Shown: one piece after another, positions 2,650 to 37,254 of the stretch
Layout of the letters: each line of letters begins with the position of its first letter
How positions within the stretch are numbered: the stretch's first letter is position 1
Assembly (NCBI GenBank): GCA_030627085.1
Contig: DAOUSS010000002.1
Coordinates: 1 to 37,823, forward strand
Direction of reading: 5' to 3'
DNA length: 37,823 nt
Source: Candidatus Stahliibacteriota bacterium
GTDB lineage: Bacteria > Hydrothermota > UBA3073
The notes under the pieces: generated by a model
Database searches by the model: none
The model's input: only the letters and a program-made list of their open reading frames with translations
Told to the model about the DNA's origin: nothing
Program-made: the position numbers and the translations under genes

Positions 2650-2757
2650 AATATCAAAAATCAAAATGCAAAAAGTTGACGGTTAACAGGCTTCGGTGAA
2701 CTCAGCCGAACCGTTATCGGTGATCGGTAATATAAAATCTGTAATCTAAAATCTACT
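2650..2757. repeat. Composite spacer: A-rich words, CGGTKAW words, A-rich words
   Basis: aatatcaaaaatcaaaatgcaaaa (2650-2673). Then TTGACGG and cggttaa/cggtgaa/ccgttat/cggtgat/cggtaat (2676-2730). Then ataaaatctgtaatctaaaatc. Confidence 0.65.
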
Positions 2758-3448: not shown

Positions 3449-3595
3449 TAAAAGACCCCCTTGTATATAGTATTGTAAAAACCAAACCACACCTGCCTAC
3501 TGCAGGCAGAACAGTTTGCAAAGAGAGAAAAGCAGCAGATAATAAGTAGTACGGGTTACATATATAGTTGTATTTCATGGCAGAAAGTTACAAAA

Positions 3596-5443
3596 TCATT
3601 CTCTCACTGCAAGAAACGCCTCCTTCGGTATCTCGACCATTCCTATGCGTTTCATCTTTTTCTTACCTTCTTTCTGTCTCTCAAGCAGTTTACGCTTTCT
3701 AGTTATATCTCCTCCATAGCACTTCGCTGTTACATCCTTTCTTATGGGTGCAACCCTTGATTTTGCTATAATTCTGCCATTACTGGATGCCTGTATCACA
3801 ACCTCAAACAACTGCCTCGGTACAATCTCCTTCAATCTCCTTGTCAACCTTACTCCTTCGTGGTATGCCCTCTCTTTTGATACTATATTTGAAAAGGCAT
3901 CCACTTGCTTTCCATTTACCAATATGTCAAGTTTCACGAAATCTCCGGGTTTGTACTCCAGGAATTCATAGTTAAGAGAAGCGAAACCCTGGGATATTGA
4001 TTTCAAATTATCATAAAAATCAAATATAATCTCCGAGAGTGGAATCTCATATTCTATCTCCACCATATTCTCTCTGTGATAAAGAATAGACCTCTGTATA
4101 CCTCTTTTGCCTTCACAAAGCTCGAGTATTTTTCCTATATATTCAGGAGGCGTGAATATTTTTGCCCTTACAATCGGTTCCTCTATGTTCTCTATTTCTG
4201 TAGGCTTAGGAAGTTGTCCAGGGTTTTCTATCCAGATAATACCTCCATTACGGAGAACGATTCTGTATCGTATATTGGGAGAAGTAGTAACTATGGAGAT
4301 ACCCATCTCTCTCTCCAGTCTCTCTTCTATAATCTTCTTATGGAGCATACCAAGAAACCCGCATCTAAAACCAAATCCAAGCGCGGATGATACTTCAGGT
4401 TCATATACAAGACTTGAATCCGCAAGAACAAGTTTCTCAAGTGCCTCTTTTAACGAGTCATAATCCTCACCATCTGCTGGATATACCCCAGCGTACACAT
4501 ATGGAGTTACCTCACGATAGCCCGGAAGTGGCTCCACATTCTGGATTTCAATTTTTGCTTTTTGCGTTTTGCGTTTTGTCCCGCGGGAGCGGAATGCCGT
4601 CAAAGGCGGGGCATTTTGCACTTTGCATTTTGCACTTTGCATTTTCATTATGGTGTCTCCAACCTTTACATCCTTTGCATCTCTTATATTGCAAATTATA
4701 TACCCTACATCTCCTGATTCAAGAACCTCTGATTTTGTCCTGTCAGGGGAGAAGTAACCCACTTCCTGCACCTCAAAGGTCTTTCCACCTCTAAAAAACT
4801 GAACAATATCGCCAGCTCTTATACTTCCACACATAACCCTTATATAGGGAATAGCTCCTCTATATTCATCGTAGTATGAATCAAATATGAGCGCTTGTAA
4901 AAGGGAGCCTTCTCTTCGAGGTGATGGAATCTTCTCTATTATTCTTCCCATAAGTTCCTCAACCCCCCATCCGTTTTTTGCTGACACAAGGAGTATCTCA
5001 TCTGAATCAAGCAGATCTATAAGTTCTCTCCTTACATCCTCAATGTGTGCATTTGGAAGATCTATCTTGTTTATAACCGGAATTATTATAAGACCTGCGT
5101 CAAGTGCCATATAAAGATTACTCATAGTCTGTGCCTGAACCCCTTGAACTGCATCAACGAGAAGGATTACTCCCTCACATGCAGCAAGACTCCTTGTCAC
5201 CTCATAGGAAAAATCAACATGCCCCGGCGTATCTATAAGATTGAGTATAAACCCCTTATATTCCATTTTTATGGGATGTGCCTTTATCGTTATTCCGTGC
5301 TCCCTTTCAAGCTCCATCCTATCCAGAACCTGCTCCCTCATAAGTCTCCTTGGGATGGTCTCTGTAATCTCAAGCATCCTGTCCGCAAGGGTAGATTTTC
5401 CATGGTCTATATGGGCAATTATACAGAAATTACGTTTATCCAT
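3596..5443 (-). CDS. lepA: Translation elongation factor 4 (LepA)
   Basis: 615 aa with G motifs AHIDHGKST, DTPGH and NKID, and LepA-specific C-terminal KCYGGDITRKRKLLERQKEGKKKMK. It carries a ~32-codon low-complexity insert between domains II and III (see findings). No SD is visible. Confidence 0.96.
   Translation of the reverse strand: MDKRNFCIIAHIDHGKSTLADRMLEITETIPRRLMREQVLDRMELEREHGITIKAHPIKMEYKGFILNLIDTPGHVDFSYEVTRSLAACEGVILLVDAVQGVQAQTMSNLYMALDAGLIIIPVINKIDLPNAHIEDVRRELIDLLDSDEILLVSAKNGWGVEELMGRIIEKIPSPRREGSLLQALIFDSYYDEYRGAIPYIRVMCGSIRAGDIVQFFRGGKTFEVQEVGYFSPDRTKSEVLESGDVGYIICNIRDAKDVKVGDTIMKMQSAKCKVQNAPPLTAFRSRGTKRKTQKAKIEIQNVEPLPGYREVTPYVYAGVYPADGEDYDSLKEALEKLVLADSSLVYEPEVSSALGFGFRCGFLGMLHKKIIEERLEREMGISIVTTSPNIRYRIVLRNGGIIWIENPGQLPKPTEIENIEEPIVRAKIFTPPEYIGKILELCEGKRGIQRSILYHRENMVEIEYEIPLSEIIFDFYDNLKSISQGFASLNYEFLEYKPGDFVKLDILVNGKQVDAFSNIVSKERAYHEGVRLTRRLKEIVPRQLFEVVIQASSNGRIIAKSRVAPIRKDVTAKCYGGDITRKRKLLERQKEGKKKMKRIGMVEIPKEAFLAVRE
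4549..4647. repeat. Spacer-like word-array element inserted in-frame in lepA
   Basis: Sense strand: (tgcaaag/tgcaaaa)x4, GC-rich core ccccgccTTTGACGGcattccgctcccgcggg, then (acaaaac/gcaaaac/gcaaaaa). Confidence 0.8.
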
Positions 5444-5450
5444 AAATGTA

Positions 5451-5485
5451 GTAATTAGGTTATTGAGTTATTAAGTCATTGAGTG
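5451..5485 (-). repeat. TAATNACC-class word array directly upstream of lepA
   Basis: The minus strand reads cactcaatgacttaataactcaataacctaattac and then ..ATG. Confidence 0.7.
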
Positions 5486-5556
5486 TCTGGTAAAAAAATA
5501 GTGTCCGAATGAAATTTTCACCGGGATCTAATTAAGTAAATGGTTGTAGCACTTCG

Positions 5557-5619
5557 TTACACATTACACATTCCACATTTCACATTCCACCTTCCACATT
5601 TCACATTACACATTCCACC
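5557..5619. repeat. G-free CACATT-type word array overlapping the panC stop
   Basis: ttacacattacacattccacatttcacattccaccttccacatttcacattacacattccacc. 63 nt with no G. Confidence 0.8.
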
Positions 5620-6463
5620 TGGCTGGAACTGCGATTATGTTGTCAATCAACCTTGTCCTGCCAAAATAGACAGCAAGGGCGAGTAGTACCGGTTTGTTTA
5701 TTGTCTTTACAAGTTTTAGGTTCTTACTGTCAACCACCTCTATATAATCAATTCGTGCCGTCCTTTTCCCTTCTATCATCTTGCGCATTGTTTTAATAAT
5801 TTTATCTGTATTATCCTCACCCTCTTCTACCAGATTTTTTCCGAAGAGCAAGGATTTATACAGAACTGCAGCGTCTTTCCTCTCCTTGTCCGTCAAGTGT
5901 ATATTTCTTGAAGAGACTGCAAGTCCATCACCTTCTCTAACAGTGGGAGAGAGGACTATCTCTATATCAAGATTCGTATCAGAAACCATTCTCTTTATCA
6001 GTATCGCCTGCTGATAATCCTTTTCTCCAAACACTGCAAGATGCGGTCTAACAATGTTAAAAAGTTTCATACATACAGTAGCAACCCCTCTCATATGTCC
6101 TGGTCTTCTTGCTCCACAGAGTGTAGCATCAAATCCTTCTACCTCTACATAGGTTGAATAACCTGTGGGATACATATCTTTTATGTCTGGATAAAATAGT
6201 ATATCAACATCTCTCTCTTTAAGAAGTCGTTTATCACGCTCAAAATCCCTCGGATAGGTCAGATAATCTTCAGATGGTCCAAATTGCTTTGGATTTACAA
6301 ATATGCTTACTACAACAATCTCAGATAGAGATCTCGCTCTATCTATAAGGGAGAGGTGCCCTTTATGCAGAAAACCCATCGTCGGGACAAACCCTATCTT
6401 CTCCTCCTTTCGGAGTTCACAAGAGAGGATCTGCATATTTTTTACAGTAGTAATTACCTTCAT
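5606..6463 (-). CDS. panC: Pantoate--beta-alanine ligase
   Basis: 285 aa with FVPTMGFLHKGHLSLI. Length and N-terminal spacing match PanC. The last ~4 codons are encoded by the downstream word array. Confidence 0.93.
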   Translation of the reverse strand: MKVITTVKNMQILSCELRKEEKIGFVPTMGFLHKGHLSLIDRARSLSEIVVVSIFVNPKQFGPSEDYLTYPRDFERDKRLLKERDVDILFYPDIKDMYPTGYSTYVEVEGFDATLCGARRPGHMRGVATVCMKLFNIVRPHLAVFGEKDYQQAILIKRMVSDTNLDIEIVLSPTVREGDGLAVSSRNIHLTDKERKDAAVLYKSLLFGKNLVEEGEDNTDKIIKTMRKMIEGKRTARIDYIEVVDSKNLKLVKTINKPVLLALAVYFGRTRLIDNIIAVPARWNV

Positions 6464-7140: not shown

Positions 7141-7387
7141 TTGGACGCAGATTTACGCAGATTATCAAGATTTTTTATATTTCTTCTATTATTATGGTGT
7201 AAACAAGGGGAAATGGAGAACGTCCCACTTCGTTGGTGCCCGAAAGTGAAAAATATGAAGTTTTATAAGTTATTGTTTCTCAATAAAATATAATTTTTTC
7301 TTCTCCATTTCTCTATATTCACCCTTTCTCCTTATGATTTTCGCAGTTAATTCGTTATCCTGTTCATCTGCGTAAATCTGCGTCCAA
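7141..7387. repeat. 247-bp element bounded by perfect 22-bp inverted repeats (MITE-like element or long RNA hairpin)
   Basis: TTGGACGCAGATTTACGCAGAT (7141-7162) is the exact reverse complement of 7366-7387. A nested inverted repeat GAAATGGAGAA (7210-7220) / TTCTCCATTTC (7301-7311) lies inside. Confidence 0.8.
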
Positions 7388-7396
7388 AAATAACAA

Positions 7397-7452
7397 TTTT
7401 GCATTTTGATTTTTGATATTTGATTTTTAATTTTTTATATATTGTATGGGGG
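7397..7452 (+). repeat. T-rich TTTTGAT leader module (shared with the grpE leader and with 9374-9406)
   Basis: ttttgcattttgatttttgatatt (7397-7420) is identical to the reverse complement of 2650-2673. attgtatggggg (7441-7452) is identical to the reverse complement of 2641-2652. Confidence 0.8.
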
Positions 7453-9130: not shown

Positions 9131-9135
9131 TGGAA

Positions 9136-9207
9136 ATAGTTTATTGGTTTAATAGTTTATTAGTTTAATAGTTTGTTAGTTTAATAGTTTATTAGTTTGT
9201 TAGTTGG
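9136..9207. repeat. C-free TAGTTTAT-type word array downstream of ftcD
   Basis: atagtttattggtttaatagtttattagtttaatagtttgttagtttaatagtttattagtttgttagttgg. 72 nt with no C. Confidence 0.8.
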
Positions 9208-9292
9208 TCAGGTTATTTGGAGTGACAGCGTTTACGTTTAAATTTGTTGAATCCATCGACCAATAAAAAAATACGAAATTGCAATTTTTTTC

Positions 9293-9321: not shown

Positions 9322-9322
9322 T

Positions 9323-9363
9323 TAGGTGTTAGGTGTCGGGTGATAGGTTCAAGGTGTTAGGTG
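9323..9363 (+). repeat. AGGTGTT word array (six SD-like words, period 7)
   Basis: AGGTG at 9324, 9331, 9352 and 9359. GGGTG at 9338. AGGTT at 9345. The array begins 2 nt after the -10 box. Confidence 0.8.
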
Positions 9364-9373
9364 AAAAATAACT

Positions 9374-9406
9374 CATTTTGATTTTTAATCTTTGATTTTT
9401 AATTTT
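9374..9406 (+). repeat. T-rich TTTTGAT leader module, third copy
   Basis: cattttgatttttaatctttgatttttaatttt, followed by accaGGGGG. Confidence 0.7.
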
Positions 9407-9513
9407 ACCAGGGGGTGCCTATAGGGAATTAGGGTATGCGGCCTGGTATAAAACTATTGTAACTGTCAATTTTGGCGTATGCCCTCATACTCCTGCAGGT
9501 ATAATGAATAAGC

Positions 9514-9538
9514 GCCAGGTCTCGTCCTGGCTTTTTTT
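9514..9538 (+). terminator. Rho-independent terminator
   Basis: GCCAGG (9514-9519), loop TCTCGT, CCTGGC (9526-9531), then T7 (9532-9538). It ends 27 nt before the murJ-like start. Confidence 0.75.
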
Positions 9539-9565
9539 ATAGAATAATGCGTTCGTAGGAGGAAT

Positions 9566-11098
9566 TTGGAAAGATTGCAGATAGAGTCTAAAGATAGAGG
9601 ATTGGCGAATGCTACATTCTGTGTAGTTTTTGCCAATGCCGTCTTTTTTCTCCTTAACTTTGGAAAAGGTGTCTTAATAGCCAATTACATTGGAGCAGGA
9701 ACAGATATGGATGCATATCTTGCGGTCGAATCCATCCCTGCTATTTTAATCGCTCTTCTTTCGGGGGCGCTTATTGCGGGTGTCATTCCTGAATTATCAA
9801 AGATAAAGAATTCAAAAGAAGGGTTGAATTTGTCCAACTCCATCTTGAACATAACTATAATCAGCGCATCTTTCATGGTGTTTATATTGATAATCTCCTC
9901 CCGTTTCATTATCCCTACCTTCTTTGAGTTAGAGAATTCAAAGATAGCGATAAAATTAAGTTATTTCTTATTTCCATTTCTGATAACAGGACTCGCGTTT
10001 AGTGTACTTAAAAGTATTGCAAACACACACAAAATCTTTCTGCTCCCTGCCCTGTCCCCTTCAATATATATTCTCATCATTATTCTATGCGTTATATTAC
10101 TCTCTCAAAGATTGGGAGTTATTAGTCTTGGCATCGGCGTCCTCGTTGGTTCCATTCTACAGGTATTATTCATATTTTCTGAGCTAAAAAAACATGGATT
10201 TCGTTATAAACCTTATGTGGACTTTCATAATCCTCACCTTTCTAAAACCGCCAGAATGACTGCGCCTTTGGTTGTTGGTTCTGCCCTTGCAAATTTCAAT
10301 GTTTTTGTAGACAGAGTAATGGCATCAAGGCTGTCTGCAGGTAGTGTTTCAGCACTCCATTACGGTTATATCCCTCTCACATTTGTTCTTAGCTTCTTCA
10401 CGGTAGCGATCTCAACCAGTATATTGCCCTATTTTAGTGAGTATGCAGCATCCAATAATATTAAGAAAATCAAGAGCACATTTATGTCAGGGGTAAATCT
10501 TTCTATATTTATTACATTGCCGGTAGCGGTATTGTTTTGGTCGATTGCTACTCCTCTTGTTAAGATCGTTCTTGAGAGAGGAGCATTTACTTCAAACAAT
10601 ACTGCGGCGGTCTCAACGGCACTTAGACTCTATGCTCTGGGGCTTCCCTTTATAGCAATTAATGCTATCATCGTAAGAGTTTACCATGCTCTTCAAAAAA
10701 ATATAGTGATAATGTTAGTTGCTATACCGTATGTTGTATTCAATATTCTCTTCAACTGGATTTTGTCAAAACCCCTTGGACATGGAGGAATTGCTCTTTC
10801 CACCTCGATTGATTATTTTATTGTCGTATCTATCCTGTTTGTTATATTAAACAGTCAGATCGGGGGCTTATTTGCAAAAAGACATCTGATTTCTTGCTGT
10901 AAAACTATCTTATGCACCTGTATTATGGCATTCTCCATTTATGCCTTTCTCTATTATTCTAAAGAATTTGCCATAGTTACCAGTTTATTATCATCAATAA
11001 TTATTGGTCTGGCGATATATTGGTTGACTGCGTTACTCATCAGACACGGAGAGATAAAAAATCTTTGTAATATATCCAGAAAAATACTCAACAGATAG
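9566..11098 (+). CDS. murJ: MurJ/MviN-family (MOP superfamily) lipid-linked oligosaccharide flippase
   Basis: 510 aa and polytopic (~14 TM). N-terminal GAGTDMDAYLAVESIPAIL resembles the MurJ signature. TTG start lies only 3 nt after AGGAGG, so the start is uncertain. As the first gene of the polysaccharide locus it could act as a Wzx-type flippase. Confidence 0.7.
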   Translation: MERLQIESKDRGLANATFCVVFANAVFFLLNFGKGVLIANYIGAGTDMDAYLAVESIPAILIALLSGALIAGVIPELSKIKNSKEGLNLSNSILNITIISASFMVFILIISSRFIIPTFFELENSKIAIKLSYFLFPFLITGLAFSVLKSIANTHKIFLLPALSPSIYILIIILCVILLSQRLGVISLGIGVLVGSILQVLFIFSELKKHGFRYKPYVDFHNPHLSKTARMTAPLVVGSALANFNVFVDRVMASRLSAGSVSALHYGYIPLTFVLSFFTVAISTSILPYFSEYAASNNIKKIKSTFMSGVNLSIFITLPVAVLFWSIATPLVKIVLERGAFTSNNTAAVSTALRLYALGLPFIAINAIIVRVYHALQKNIVIMLVAIPYVVFNILFNWILSKPLGHGGIALSTSIDYFIVVSILFVILNSQIGGLFAKRHLISCCKTILCTCIMAFSIYAFLYYSKEFAIVTSLLSSIIIGLAIYWLTALLIRHGEIKNLCNISRKILNR

Positions 11099-21467: not shown

Positions 21468-22865
21468 ATGCCTTTACTCTTGATAATATTTACAGTATAT
21501 TTAGAACCTTGCCTCTTGGAGTATGAGGCAGTAAAAGAAGGAAAAGCCTTCTTCTGGAGAATGGATAAGGTACGAGCAGAATCATTCATCCCAGAGATGG
21601 ATATATCATTTTGCGGTTTTGGACTGTACGATAGTAACAGAAAAGGAAATGGTGTATTTGAGCTTATGATAAGACAGGGATTCCCTATACATCCATTTGT
21701 GAAGGGTGAGGTGGATATAGGTGCATTTCAAGAGGTTGGCGATGGACAGGGGATATTGCCCTATTGGGACCCTCTCTTAGAGCCAAAGTATATAATATGT
21801 AACTTTGAAACAGAGCCAGTTGTGTCCCATACAAATTTTGATGTCAGGACAGAAAAGGCATACCTTCTCTTTGATATAGGAACACTGTCCATTGGGACAG
21901 GTAGAAACAGACTGAAAGTTGGTCCTGGATACAGGAGCAATCTTCTTCTGTCTGGTAGAGGACAGCCTCTCAACTTCCTGTACAACGCAAGGGTGAAAAA
22001 GGGACCACTACATCTTTTTGCCTTCAATGCAGGCATAGAGGACTCGATTGATGGAAAGAGGATCTCCTGTCAGAGGATAGAACTGTATCTCTCTTGTGTA
22101 ACAATAGGAATTACAGAGGCGGTTCTGCACAAAAAGGAAAACTTTCTAAAGTATGTAAATCCGGTAGAATTTTATTACATCACGCAGAGAAGGGGCAAAG
22201 ATAACGAAGATAATCTTGTTGCAAGTAGTGATATTACATTTACAAAAAATGGGAAAAAATACTATCTCGAACTTCTGCTTGACGACCCAATTATCTTCCA
22301 TAAGGAGAGACCCTTTAAGGGTGGAATGATGCTGGGAATGTATCTTACAGACCCGTTTGGTATGCCATCCTCTGATTTCAGAATAGAGGCGACTGCACTT
22401 CCAAGATGGACATATACCCATGACTACAGTGACCAGATAAATGCCCTTACAGCAAACGGTCTTCCACTCGGATTTTTTGGTGGGTCAGATTGCATTGATA
22501 TTTATACAGAATTCACAAAATACTGGACACGGGATACTGTTTACTCCCTGCTGCCTACTCCCTACTCCCCACTGCCTACTTCCTACTTCTCTCTTATACT
22601 GGAGTATCTTGCCCATGGTGATGGAAAACTTAACATTGGTTGGCAGGACGAAAAAGAGAATTATCCACAACCAAGAAAGATAAAAATTCCCTCAGGCTGT
22701 AAAGAAGAGAGATTGAGAGTGGGTATTAAAGGAACCCTTGCTAAAGAAAAATTTTCCATAACTACAGGGGTATATGTCGAGCGGATAAAAAATTATATGA
22801 ACCGGGATGGTAATAACTTCACCAGGGTCTCGATAAAAACTGCTACTCTTTTTACTCTACCCTGA
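21468..22865 (+). CDS. Hypothetical outer-membrane protein, possibly capsule-assembly Wzi-like
   Basis: 465 aa with GGAGG 5 nt upstream. NRLKVGPGYRSNLLLSGRGQPL resembles the Wzi-family G-x-GPG..S-L-LS motif as I recall it from memory. Contains the in-frame CTACTCC word array at 22541-22592. Confidence 0.45.
   Translation: MPLLLIIFTVYLEPCLLEYEAVKEGKAFFWRMDKVRAESFIPEMDISFCGFGLYDSNRKGNGVFELMIRQGFPIHPFVKGEVDIGAFQEVGDGQGILPYWDPLLEPKYIICNFETEPVVSHTNFDVRTEKAYLLFDIGTLSIGTGRNRLKVGPGYRSNLLLSGRGQPLNFLYNARVKKGPLHLFAFNAGIEDSIDGKRISCQRIELYLSCVTIGITEAVLHKKENFLKYVNPVEFYYITQRRGKDNEDNLVASSDITFTKNGKKYYLELLLDDPIIFHKERPFKGGMMLGMYLTDPFGMPSSDFRIEATALPRWTYTHDYSDQINALTANGLPLGFFGGSDCIDIYTEFTKYWTRDTVYSLLPTPYSPLPTSYFSLILEYLAHGDGKLNIGWQDEKENYPQPRKIKIPSGCKEERLRVGIKGTLAKEKFSITTGVYVERIKNYMNRDGNNFTRVSIKTATLFTLP
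22541..22592 (+). repeat. CTACTCC-type pyrimidine word array inside the Wzi-like CDS
   Basis: ttactccctgctgcctactccctactccccactgcctacttcctacttctctc encodes VYSLLPTPYSPLPTSYFSL. Confidence 0.7.
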
Positions 22866-26287: not shown

Positions 26288-26373
26288 AAGACTAAAGACC
26301 AAAGACATAAGACTACAGACCAAAGACTTACTTACTCAATTACTTAATAACCTAATGACCCAATAACCTAAGA
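26288..26373 (+). repeat. AAAGACC then TAATNACC word arrays upstream of hslV
   Basis: aagactaaagaccaaagacataagactacagaccaaagactt, then acttactcaattacttaataacctaatgacccaataacctaag. Confidence 0.75.
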
Positions 26374-26394: not shown

Positions 26395-26922
26395 ATGATT
26401 ATATCTACAACCATAATAGGTATACGATATAAAGGCGAGGCTGCCATTGGGGGAGATGGGCAGGTTACAGTAGAGAAGACAATAATGAAACAGTCTGCAA
26501 ACAAGATAAGAAAACTGTATAATGGTAAAATTCTGGCAGGATTTGCAGGCGGTGCTGCCGATGCAATTACACTATTTGAAAGGTTTGAGAAGAAACTGGA
26601 GGAATCGCATGGCAATCTGCAGAAATCAGTTGTGAATCTTGCAAAGGACTGGAGGGCTGACAAGGTCCTACGAAGGCTTGAAGCGCTATTGGTAGTATTG
26701 AATAAGGAATCTGTATTCCTTGTATCAGGCTCTGGGGATGTAATTGAGCCCGATGATGGCATAGTGGCAATAGGTTCAGGAGGAGCTTACGCACTTGCAG
26801 CAGCAAGGGCACTAATAAAACATACAAATCTTTCTGCAAAGGAGATTGTGGAGGAGTCTATAAGAATAGCCTCGTCTATATGTGTATACACAAATGATAA
26901 CATAGGGGTGGAGACGCTATGA
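26395..26922 (+). CDS. hslV: ATP-dependent protease subunit HslV
   Basis: 175 aa with [16 protein letters not shown] and [17 protein letters not shown]. Four residues (MIIS) precede the expected N-terminal Thr, resembling the short extension of B. subtilis CodW. TGA overlaps the hslU ATG. Confidence 0.93.
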
Positions 26923-28768: not shown

Positions 28769-28850
28769 TTAATTACTTAATTACCTAATAACCTAATTAC
28801 TTAATGACCTATTGATCCAATTACCTATTGACTCAATGACCTAATGACCC
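28769..28850 (+). repeat. TAATNACC word array (about 10 words) upstream of aspS
   Basis: ttaattacttaattacctaataacctaattacttaatgacctattgatccaattacctattgactcaatgacctaatgaccc. Confidence 0.8.
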
Positions 28851-28871
28851 AATTCTAAATAAGAACTTATT

Positions 28872-31730: not shown

Positions 31731-31811
31731 ACACTCAACATTTCACATTTCACATTTCACATTTAACATTCAACACTCAACATTTCACATTCAACATTTC
31801 ACATTTCACAC
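31731..31811 (+). repeat. G-free CATTTCA-type word array between rplM and rpsI
   Basis: 81 nt with no G: acactcaacatttcacatttcacatttcacatttaacattcaacactcaacatttcacattcaacatttcacatttcacac. Confidence 0.8.
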
Positions 31812-32275: not shown

Positions 32276-32309
32276 GAGTCATTGAGTTATTAGGTCATTA
32301 AGTTATTAA
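32276..32309. repeat. Antisense-oriented TAATNACC-class array downstream of rpsI
   Basis: gagtcattgagttattaggtcattaagttattaa. attgagttattagg (32281-32294) is the exact reverse complement of 32395-32408. Confidence 0.75.
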
Positions 32310-32355
32310 AAGATTGCTTGCTCGATGACGCAGATTAATGCAGATAAAAGGACAG

Positions 32356-32427
32356 TAATTAAGTTATTGACCTAATTACCTAATGACCCAGTTACCTAAT
32401 AACTCAATTATCCAATAACCTAATTAC
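32356..32427 (+). repeat. TAATNACC word array upstream of the sugar dehydrogenase
   Basis: taattaagttattgacctaattacctaatgacccagttacctaataactcaattatccaataacctaattac. Confidence 0.8.
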
Positions 32428-35392: not shown

Positions 35393-35429
35393 ACTACCTC
35401 CATATAATTAAATCATTGTGTATAATATT

Positions 35430-35505
35430 AACCGCAGAGCGCGCAGAGAACACAGAGTTTTTATTTATTTTTTCTTAGCGAGCTCTGCGAACTCTGCGGT
35501 TTTTT
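35430..35505. repeat. CGCAGAG-word palindromic hairpin between the exbB-like and exbD-like genes
   Basis: ACCGCAGAGcgCGCAGAG (35431-35448) pairs with CTCTGCGaaCTCTGCGGT (35483-35500), giving 9+7 bp. A T6 run follows on the plus strand. Confidence 0.75.
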
Positions 35506-37197: not shown

Positions 37198-37254
37198 CTA
37201 ACAAACTAACCAACTAACCACCTAACCAACTACCAAACTATCCAACTACTTCTA
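37198..37254 (-). repeat. Word array forming the prfB 5' leader (C-free on the RNA strand)
   Basis: The plus strand ctaacaaactaaccaactaaccacctaaccaactaccaaactatccaactacttcta has no G. It lies exactly between the -10 box and GGAGGGG-ATG. Confidence 0.8.

Follow-up and report, generated by a model that had tools for sequence, protein, structure and literature searches.

The window, a stretch of 37,823 nucleotides (nt) comprising positions 1 to 37,823 of contig DAOUSS010000002.1 from a Candidatus Stahliibacteriota bacterium (assembly GCA_030627085.1), contains the gene lepA, and within lepA, where domains II and III of the encoded elongation factor 4 (EF4) meet, lies an in-frame run of seven-nucleotide repeats. 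Comparison with related sequences suggests that this segment is probably a translated, frame-constrained heptanucleotide microsatellite in a coding region, that is, a variable number tandem repeat (VNTR), and part of the 7-8-nt arrays that fill the spacers of the lineage. It has the properties of a prokaryotic long simple sequence repeat (SSR) or VNTR, with tandem units beyond chance expectation, a polymorphic copy number and homogenisation of the units within the array.

The lepA product matches the equivalog family TIGR01393 over its full length with 849.7 bits (cutoff 533.9), and its Pfam domains are GTP_EFTU (residues 3-174), D2 (196-265), EFG_III (from 314), EFG_C (420-503) and LepA_C (PF06421; 509-613, at 1.7e-43). 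LepA chains in the PDB (2ywe, 5imq and 3cb4) match it with E values of about 1e-200, and the solved structures cover residues 3-267 and 303-613, with residues 268-302 having no counterpart. In an alignment of 65 sequences the stretch equivalent to residues 265-306 is 42 amino acids long in the window and 10-12 in the 57 LepA proteins from outside the clade, 54 of which have 12, in agreement with the roughly 30 extra codons estimated in an initial annotation of the window made from the sequence alone. The peptide quoted there is the actual translation, the insert is in frame at the inter-domain junction as stated, and the limits given for it, 4549-4647, are right within a few bases. LepA is conserved yet non-essential in E. 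coli.

The AlphaFold2 model calculated from the 65-sequence alignment has a mean predicted local distance difference test score (pLDDT) of 79.8 and a predicted template modelling score (pTM) of 0.70; this is the model used here, a model from 13 sequences (mean pLDDT 60) having been set aside. The only long segment with a pLDDT below 50 is residues 270-301 (26-32). It is without secondary structure and is flanked by the strand that closes domain II (264-267) and the one that opens domain III (316-322). It would seem most likely from this model that the linker is a floppy, disordered loop on the surface, at a junction that tolerates it. The linker peptides of the clade are hydrophilic and mostly basic, with 9-27% hydrophobic residues and a net charge between 0, as in the locus labelled L010, and +9.

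On the sense strand, codon 266 is followed by an array of five heptamer units, a GC-rich core and a second array to its right (Table 1). Tandem Repeats Finder (TRF) reports the left array, as GCATTTT/GCACTTT, with a period of 14, 2.5 copies, 100% matches and a score of 70, and the right array, at 4553-4578 and as TTTTGCG, with a period of 7, 3.7 copies and 94% matches. The two half-arrays are thus homogenised differently, the left to a 14-nt AAAATGC/AAAGTGC period and the right to AAAACGC. The left array is homologous to the AAAATGC arrays at the same codon in loci L001, L014, L015, L005 and L008, and the terminal AAAAATTGAAATCCAGAATGTG of the right array is common to L001, L014 and L015. Promoter and terminator signals at 4300-4900 are no more than shuffled sequence would give, and nothing points to an internal promoter in lepA. 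Rfam gave no match at the gathering threshold and one meaningless match in an E-value search, no transfer RNA or transfer-messenger RNA was found, and the fold of the whole insert on the sense strand is no better than that of shuffled sequence (z = -0.41). An insertion that is not translated, such as an intein, an intron or a bypass element, is improbable: all alleles are multiples of three and free of stops, there is no Rfam match, and an intein would need a much longer segment. The stop-free arrays also give rise to spurious antisense open reading frames (ORFs) across the tract, at 4387-4794 and 4569-4757, both on the plus strand.

A protein search returned seven LepA clusters with 76-95% identity, whose source names are candidate division WOR-3 or Candidatus Stahlbacteria, after which the next-best match has only 61% identity. 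DNA was examined for all seven clusters, and a heptamer array is present at the same codon, after GDT(I/V)x, in each of them (11 loci). The unit is AAAATGC in L001, L005 and L008, AAAATCA in L004 and L006, AAAAGTC in L009 and AAGTCCG in L010; the arrays are therefore homogenised internally and diverged between lineages while occupying the same codon. Allowing for a shift of register by one base where needed, the units form a chain, AAAATGC, AAAATCA, AAAGTCA, AAGTCCG, with steps of one or two substitutions, which would fit concerted evolution of a single ancestral array. The relative with 61% identity and the other 56 LepA compared have no heptamer array. Since every relative in the clade has one and the 57 LepA outside it have none, the array is clade-wide and orthologous and was not delivered to the window strain. 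Alignment of orthologues bears out the extra linker at the junction that had been proposed initially, and shows the array in every relative down to 76% protein identity; close relatives share a homologous, shorter linker, which is in part what the initial annotation had named as a refutation of its proposal. Across the clade the linker ranges from 11 to 36 amino acids, and it varies even among strains that are 98-99% identical.

The window LepA belongs to a cluster of 14 members at 90% identity, and DNA was examined for the informative members. Among these the AAAATGC array occurs as alleles of two, five and eight units (Table 1), differing by steps of exactly three units, equal to 21 nt or seven amino acids. 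The five-unit allele is found in three independent assemblies, other alleles likewise recur in several assemblies, and the tract of L001 is perfect, with 100% matches over 5.6 copies. Where their flanks are conserved, non-coding arrays differ by one or two units: compared with the window, L004 has a grpE leader 7 nt longer, with one more TTTTGCA unit between identical flanks, and L001 and L015 are 16 nt apart in the octamer array upstream of lepA.

Because 7 nt does not divide into whole codons, successive units are read in different phases, all three being used, and only units free of stop codons in every phase are possible. All of the lepA units are stop-free in the three sense phases, which the common intergenic units TAATGAC, TAATAAC, GTGAAAT and ATAAAGG are not. 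The span from GDT to PLPGY is 69-144 nt in the alleles, in every case a multiple of three and without a stop. In simulations, slippage by one or two units leads to a stop within at most 35 codons, with loss of domains III and V and of the C-terminal domain, so that only changes of three units keep LepA intact. All 24 linker-spanning proteins in the clade clusters are in frame, giving 0 of 24 out-of-frame (OFF) alleles in consensus assemblies reached through their proteins. The few LepA fragments in the clusters are partial genes at contig ends, and none has a terminus at the tract within a long contig.

Table 1. Positions of the main features in the window and lepA alleles of the same cluster.
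Feature	Position	Strand	Basis or description
lepA (EF4), host gene, 615 amino acids	3596..5443	minus	TIGR01393, Pfam and PDB matches
Extra linker, codons 268-302	4538..4642	minus	gap in PDB alignments; predicted unstructured domain II/III loop
Left (5') heptamer array, AAAATGC AAAGTGC AAAATGC AAAGTGC AAAATGC, encoding KMQSAKCKVQNA	4611..4645	minus	TRF
GC-rich core of 33 nt, CCCGCCTTTGACGGCATTCCGCTCCCGCGGGAC, encoding PPLTAFRSRGT	4578..4610	minus	allele-specific; between the two arrays
Right (3') array, AAAACGC AAAACGC AAAAAGC and partial unit AAAAATT, encoding KRKTQKAKI	4550..4577	minus	TRF
Mosaic tract of clustered single-nucleotide polymorphisms around the linker	4490..4652	minus	comparison with other alleles of the same species
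Intergenic array TTTTGCA TTTTGAT TTTTGAT (gene strand), directly upstream of grpE	2650..2675	minus	24 nt 100% complementary to 7397-7420
Intergenic array TTTTGCA/TTTTGAT, directly upstream of the FTCD gene (Pfam)	7395..7435	plus	TRF
Heptamer array TACTCCC within an ORF, 6.6 copies, encoding YSLLPTPYSPLPTSYF	22542..22587	plus	Wzi-like protein; TRF and PF14052
lepA allele of L015			2 AAAATGC units; flanks versus window 98.9% (5') and 98.5% (3')
lepA allele of L001			5 AAAATGC units; flanks versus window 98.9% (5') and 98.6% (3')
lepA allele of L014			8 AAAATGC units; flanks versus window 98.6% (5') and 97.8% (3')
lepA allele of L016			AAAATCA array; flanks versus window 98.6% (5') and 97.9% (3')
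lepA allele of L013 and the window			compound allele with core; L013 flanks versus window 99.9% (5') and 99.8% (3')

The allele of the window is a compound one, equal to the five-unit allele of L001 with a further 54 nt (the core and three units) or, equally, to the eight-unit allele with a further 33 nt, and the frame is kept. The core is a presence/absence polymorphism among alleles that are all in frame: it is identical in L013 and missing from all other alleles examined, including those of L001, L014 and L015. L013 comes from the assembly of another sample; its 144-nt linker is the same as that of the window, and over 7,521 nt the two differ at 8 positions, three of them in lepA. The compound allele is therefore real and not an artefact. 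No second copy of the core was found in the window with up to three mismatches or in about 180 kb of related loci, where blastn-short gave only matches of 9-11 nt. Scans for exact 21-22-mers gave nothing in viral contigs and, in genome and metagenome collections, only two chance-level matches on unrelated high-GC contigs, one of 22 nt in a coding sequence from Sphingomonadales and the other of 23 nt. Nor was there any candidate when the core was compared in five of its six reading frames with 5.8 billion protein-cluster representatives, a search that would miss intergenic copies. The ends of the core form an imperfect 8-bp stem, and its fold at -20 kcal/mol on the antisense strand modestly surpasses that of shuffled sequence (z = -2.05), which the sense strand does not (z = -1.23), so that its hairpin potential is weak. 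The insert region has no inverted repeat of at least 8 nt and no target-site duplication. Membership of the core in a dispersed family of hairpins of the form CCTGCCT..AGGCAGG, which resemble repetitive extragenic palindromic (REP) elements, was considered and rejected, 312 of 2,000 shuffles scoring as well.

The surroundings of the linker are a mosaic. The lepA of the window has 30 mismatches to that of L001 over about 1,790 aligned nt, of which 12 are around the linker, three at gene positions 792-798 on the 5' side and nine in the 45 nt at 912-954 on the 3' side, and the 60 nt upstream are identical to L001. A Poisson estimate gives about 0.75 mismatches in 45 nt, which makes chance a very unlikely cause of the nine. 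The tract matches no sampled lineage. Probably the compound allele predates its species background, having come in by homologous recombination on a short tract; alternatively, the polymorphisms could have arisen through mutagenic repair when the insertion occurred.

A census with TRF at a score of at least 40 gave 20 arrays in the window with a period of 7 or 8, or multiples of these, against a mean of 0.27 in 30 dinucleotide-preserving shuffles. Although 89% of the window is coding, 15 of the 20 lie between genes or across a stop codon. Spacer arrays are seen, for example, at 165-212, 2723-2754, 5450-5484, 5560-5618, 7396-7435, 9135-9217, 9322-9406, 26288-26371, 28770-28853, 31738-31810, 32278-32427 and 37198-37248. 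The use of the arrays appears to depend on position, with YTAATNAC octamers before starts and heptamers after stops. The octamers precede lepA, aspS (28872), ugd (32492), guaB (24835) and the ORF at 26395, often without a Shine-Dalgarno sequence, and heptamers follow the stops of panC (GAATGTG), dnaK (GTGAAAA) and lepB (AGATTTT). Arrays of TTTTGAT and YTAATNAC abut the starts of grpE, the FTCD gene, lepA, aspS and guaB. In the predicted proteins P0001, P0139 and P0140 gene callers have extended the start of lepA into the upstream array, giving N-termini such as MTQRLNDIEP... and MNRVNQTNQINP.... A literature search found no published description of tandem repeats or arrays in WOR-3 or Stahlbacteria.

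Two further genes of the window have array-encoded protein sequence. Homologues of the Wzi-like protein (ORF 21468..22865, plus strand) differ in length and sequence at exactly the loop encoded by its TACTCCC array. The stop codon of panC (5606..6463, minus strand) lies within the GAATGTG/TAATGTG array at 5560-5618, so that RWNV, the final residues, are array-encoded; among relatives PanC has 277-303 amino acids, and in L004 the gene was called as 238 amino acids plus a separate ORF of 40. With both the Wzi-like loop and the end of panC encoded in this way, arrays enter coding sequence wherever the protein tolerates them.

The spacers themselves vary extremely between strains with 98-99% identity in their genes, as seen at 5444-5605 and 2658-2755 in comparison with L001, L014, L015, L016 and L004. 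The panC-lepA spacer holds wholly different array families according to strain, and the lepB-grpE spacer, in which whole blocks are replaced, measures anything from about 100 to about 570 nt. A cassette at 7141-7387, similar to a miniature inverted-repeat transposable element (MITE), has 31-nt inverted repeats (TTGGACGCAGATTTACGCAGAT...) at its ends, and the TTTTGCA/TTTTGAT leader array comes after it; pieces of the cassette with 92-94% identity also occur between lepB and grpE in L001 and L015, where the window has a different spacer. The REP-like, GC-rich CCTGCCT-N-AGGCAGG hairpins are dispersed in spacers, at 3491-3512 in the window, 3552 and 7152 in L001, 5718, 6767 and 9510 in L014, 6249 and 12769 in L006, and 6299 and 11989 in L009. 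In several strains one such hairpin closely follows the end of lepA, and two hairpins (L014 6767 and L006 12769) are inside TTTTGAT arrays, so that a layout of array, GC-rich hairpin and array is genuine in the lineage.

Upstream of murJ (9566..11098), at 9407-9565, the arrays are followed by a GC-richer leader of about 160 nt that ends in a terminator-like hairpin and a T run (GCCAGGTCTCGTCCTGGCTTTTTTT); it has no Rfam match and could be a structured leader or attenuator. Other spacer words are found at 32330-32350, 35429-35456 and 35478-35498, among which GACGCAGATTAATGCAGAT is similar to the cassette's terminal repeat, and the 9-mer spacer repeats GCGAACTCT/CAGAGAACACAGAG are arranged as inverted pairs.

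These observations can be brought together in a model in which the array would have arisen in the common ancestor of the WOR-3 clade, as its shared position at the EF4 domain II/III junction suggests. Its copy number shifts by replication slippage, as the alleles of two, five and eight units show, and the unit would be replaced over time by concerted evolution, as AAAATGC, AAAATCA, AAAAGTC or AAGTCCG according to lineage, while the cluster of polymorphisms suggests that alleles may be exchanged by homologous recombination. The product would be a hydrophilic loop rich in Lys, Gln and Asn, probably disordered and tolerated at the junction. The array is then most likely a tolerated by-product of the tendency of the lineage to generate arrays, with selection acting on frame and hydrophilicity and with no dedicated function. 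Some points weigh against the interpretation as a frame-constrained microsatellite. Slippage alone cannot create the 33-nt core, whose origin it leaves unexplained. The count of in-frame proteins carries some bias, since the sequences came to light as predicted proteins, and in consensus assemblies only. It is also somewhat surprising, if the array is neutral, that a frame-breaking microsatellite should last through about 23% nucleotide divergence, and there may be selection for the array or the loop.

The initial annotation had suggested that the insert is an intergenic element that invaded, or expanded within, the linker, by analogy with the Rickettsia palindromic elements (RPEs). Developed further, this becomes a mobile module of array, hairpin and array, RPE- or MITE-like, inserted antisense and in frame in the lepA linker, with the arrays either part of the element or its preferred target. 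It is the alternative that survives best, and is nonetheless unlikely. Read antisense, the insert is a TTTTGCN array, a GC-rich hairpin (the core, with its z of -2.05) and a TTTTGCA array, and, as had been noted, it shares the heptamer words TTTTGCA/TTTTGAT with leader arrays, here those that precede grpE and the FTCD gene. The same layout is seen in the grpE leaders of L014 and L006, with the CCTGCCT..AGGCAGG hairpin within the TTTTGAT array; the TTTTGCA/TTTTGAT leader array adjoins the cassette with 31-nt inverted repeats, which is in different spacers according to strain; and the core is cleanly present in the window and absent from L001. Against such a module, no second copy of the core turned up in the window, the 180 kb from relatives, the public scans or the protein representatives, its likeness to the REP-like hairpins is not significant, and the arrays at the lepA site are far older than the core. 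Neither an inverted repeat of at least 8 nt nor a target duplication is present, and the sense-strand fold of the whole insert is unremarkable. A discrete, RPE-like element that invaded lepA is therefore not supported: the array predates the strain, the allele-specific part is only 33-54 nt, and the core is single-copy in the sequences searched. The resemblance seen initially to the spacer at 2650-2757 extends to layout and array family only, because the GC-rich cores cannot be aligned and the word TTGACGG, proposed as a shared signature, is not special, with six copies in the window against 2.4 expected and five of 100 shuffles reaching six.

In a broader alternative, a system found throughout the lineage and actively maintained would reach into an ORF with the lepA tract. 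Its arrays, specific in orientation and position, would serve as cis-regulatory platforms, be moved or rewritten between strains by a dedicated mechanism, and act in lepA as a heritable switch of EF4 on and off or of its length. We regard this as improbable. If it were true, octamers before starts and heptamers after stops, sometimes with GC-rich hairpins, would be components of that system, and the arrays might aid initiation independent of Shine-Dalgarno sequences or bind an RNA- or DNA-binding protein.

It is quite improbable that lepA is a contingency locus, in which slippage by one unit would switch EF4 off reversibly and steps of three units would tune the linker, so that subpopulations would differ in translation under stress. 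Such behaviour would be in keeping with a unit that is not a multiple of three and whose gain or loss truncates LepA after domain II, with the perfect tract of L001, and with polymorphism between strains and persistence across the clade; in-ORF heptanucleotide tracts do cause frameshifts in Haemophilus influenzae (PMC2651432). However, none of the 24 linker-spanning sequences is out of frame, no fragment in the clusters breaks at the tract inside a long contig, and tracts of 2-8 units are short for high rates of switching. LepA is moreover a housekeeping factor and not of the surface or restriction-modification class typical of such loci. As equivalent arrays are found everywhere in the window, no explanation specific to lepA is needed.

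A selected protein feature, where a lysine-rich loop is kept for a useful contact, for instance with ribosomal RNA, and the repeat merely encodes it, is very doubtful. The linker is kept in all seven clade clusters and its peptides are hydrophilic and mostly positive whatever the unit. On the other hand its length and sequence vary greatly (11-36 amino acids), even among strains with 98-99% identity, the linker of L010 has no net charge, the loop is predicted to be disordered and has no conserved motif, and the Wzi-like protein behaves alike with a different peptide. Lastly, tandem repeats are known to cause assembly errors, but that the insert is an assembly or sequencing error is effectively refuted by the identical linker in the independent assembly L013, with its 8 differences in 7,521 nt elsewhere, by the recurrence of other alleles in several assemblies, by the length of the tract (at most 105 nt, under a typical read length) and by its being in frame and free of stops.

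The interpretation as a frame-constrained VNTR can be set against several known systems. Long SSRs of prokaryotes were surveyed by Mrazek and co-workers (2007), and the summary in PMC4679880 gives heptamers as the commonest class in most of those genomes. According to the same summary these SSRs have units of 5-11 nt repeated head to tail far beyond chance, are mostly intergenic and polymorphic in copy number, and are attributed to slippage, in all of which the lepA array resembles them. It is unlike them in lying in the middle of a gene for a universally conserved translation GTPase and in remaining in frame across the clade, whereas in-gene units in the survey, as summarised there, are mostly multiples of three.

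The TAACTGA repeats of Beggiatoaceae, cyanobacteria and Bacteroidetes (MacGregor 2015, PMC4679880) lie upstream of starts, often where there is no Shine-Dalgarno sequence. Some overlap stops, and a minority within ORFs are in the stop-free orientation and encode 7-amino-acid repeats, one of them in an ORF resembling RNA polymerase beta-prime (PMC4679880). The WOR-3 arrays are similar in being directly upstream of starts and across stops, with stop-free copies in ORFs. In contrast to that system with its one dominant unit, the WOR-3 arrays comprise many families of 7- and 8-mers, for example AAAATGC, AAAATCA, GAATGTG and YTAATNAC, and the unit is not TAACTGA. Their units and arrays also turn over between strains with 98-99% identity, and the lepA array is orthologous and changes in three-unit steps.

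Heptanucleotide tracts of 8-38 units within the ORF cause frameshifting in hmw1A and in a gene for a TonB-dependent receptor of H. influenzae (PMC2651432). The lepA tract is like these contingency loci in being a non-triplet SSR within an ORF where a change of one unit truncates the product, and unlike them in having no out-of-frame sequence among 24, in its housekeeping host gene, and in its 2-8 units as against 8-38. RPEs, reviewed in PMC10969869, are about 150 bp long and form conserved families with dozens of dispersed copies, each encoding a conserved peptide. In common with RPEs, the lepA insert is a short piece of DNA that is not protein-like, placed in frame at a tolerant site and adding a surface peptide; it differs in that its unique part is 33 nt and single-copy, the remainder being a microsatellite that evolves in place. 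Finally, the tandem repeats of Borgs occur in spacers and ORFs, those in ORFs having units that are all divisible by three, disordered amino-acid repeats as products and a frame under selection (PMC9879509). The lepA array is likewise fast-evolving, present in the spacers and in an ORF of its lineage, and predicted to give a disordered product. Here, however, the unit is 7 nt and the protein repeats every seven amino acids (21 nt), which leaves one slippage product in three viable, and the array is on a bacterial chromosome as opposed to an archaeal extrachromosomal element.

The lepA tract is an unusually clean natural case of a non-triplet microsatellite inside a conserved gene, and it identifies the domain II/III junction of EF4 as a place where 5 to 30 additional residues can be accommodated. 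The hypervariable spacer arrays found across the lineage are the more striking observation, and they bear on translation initiation, on the typing of strains, and on the assembly and annotation of metagenome-assembled genomes.

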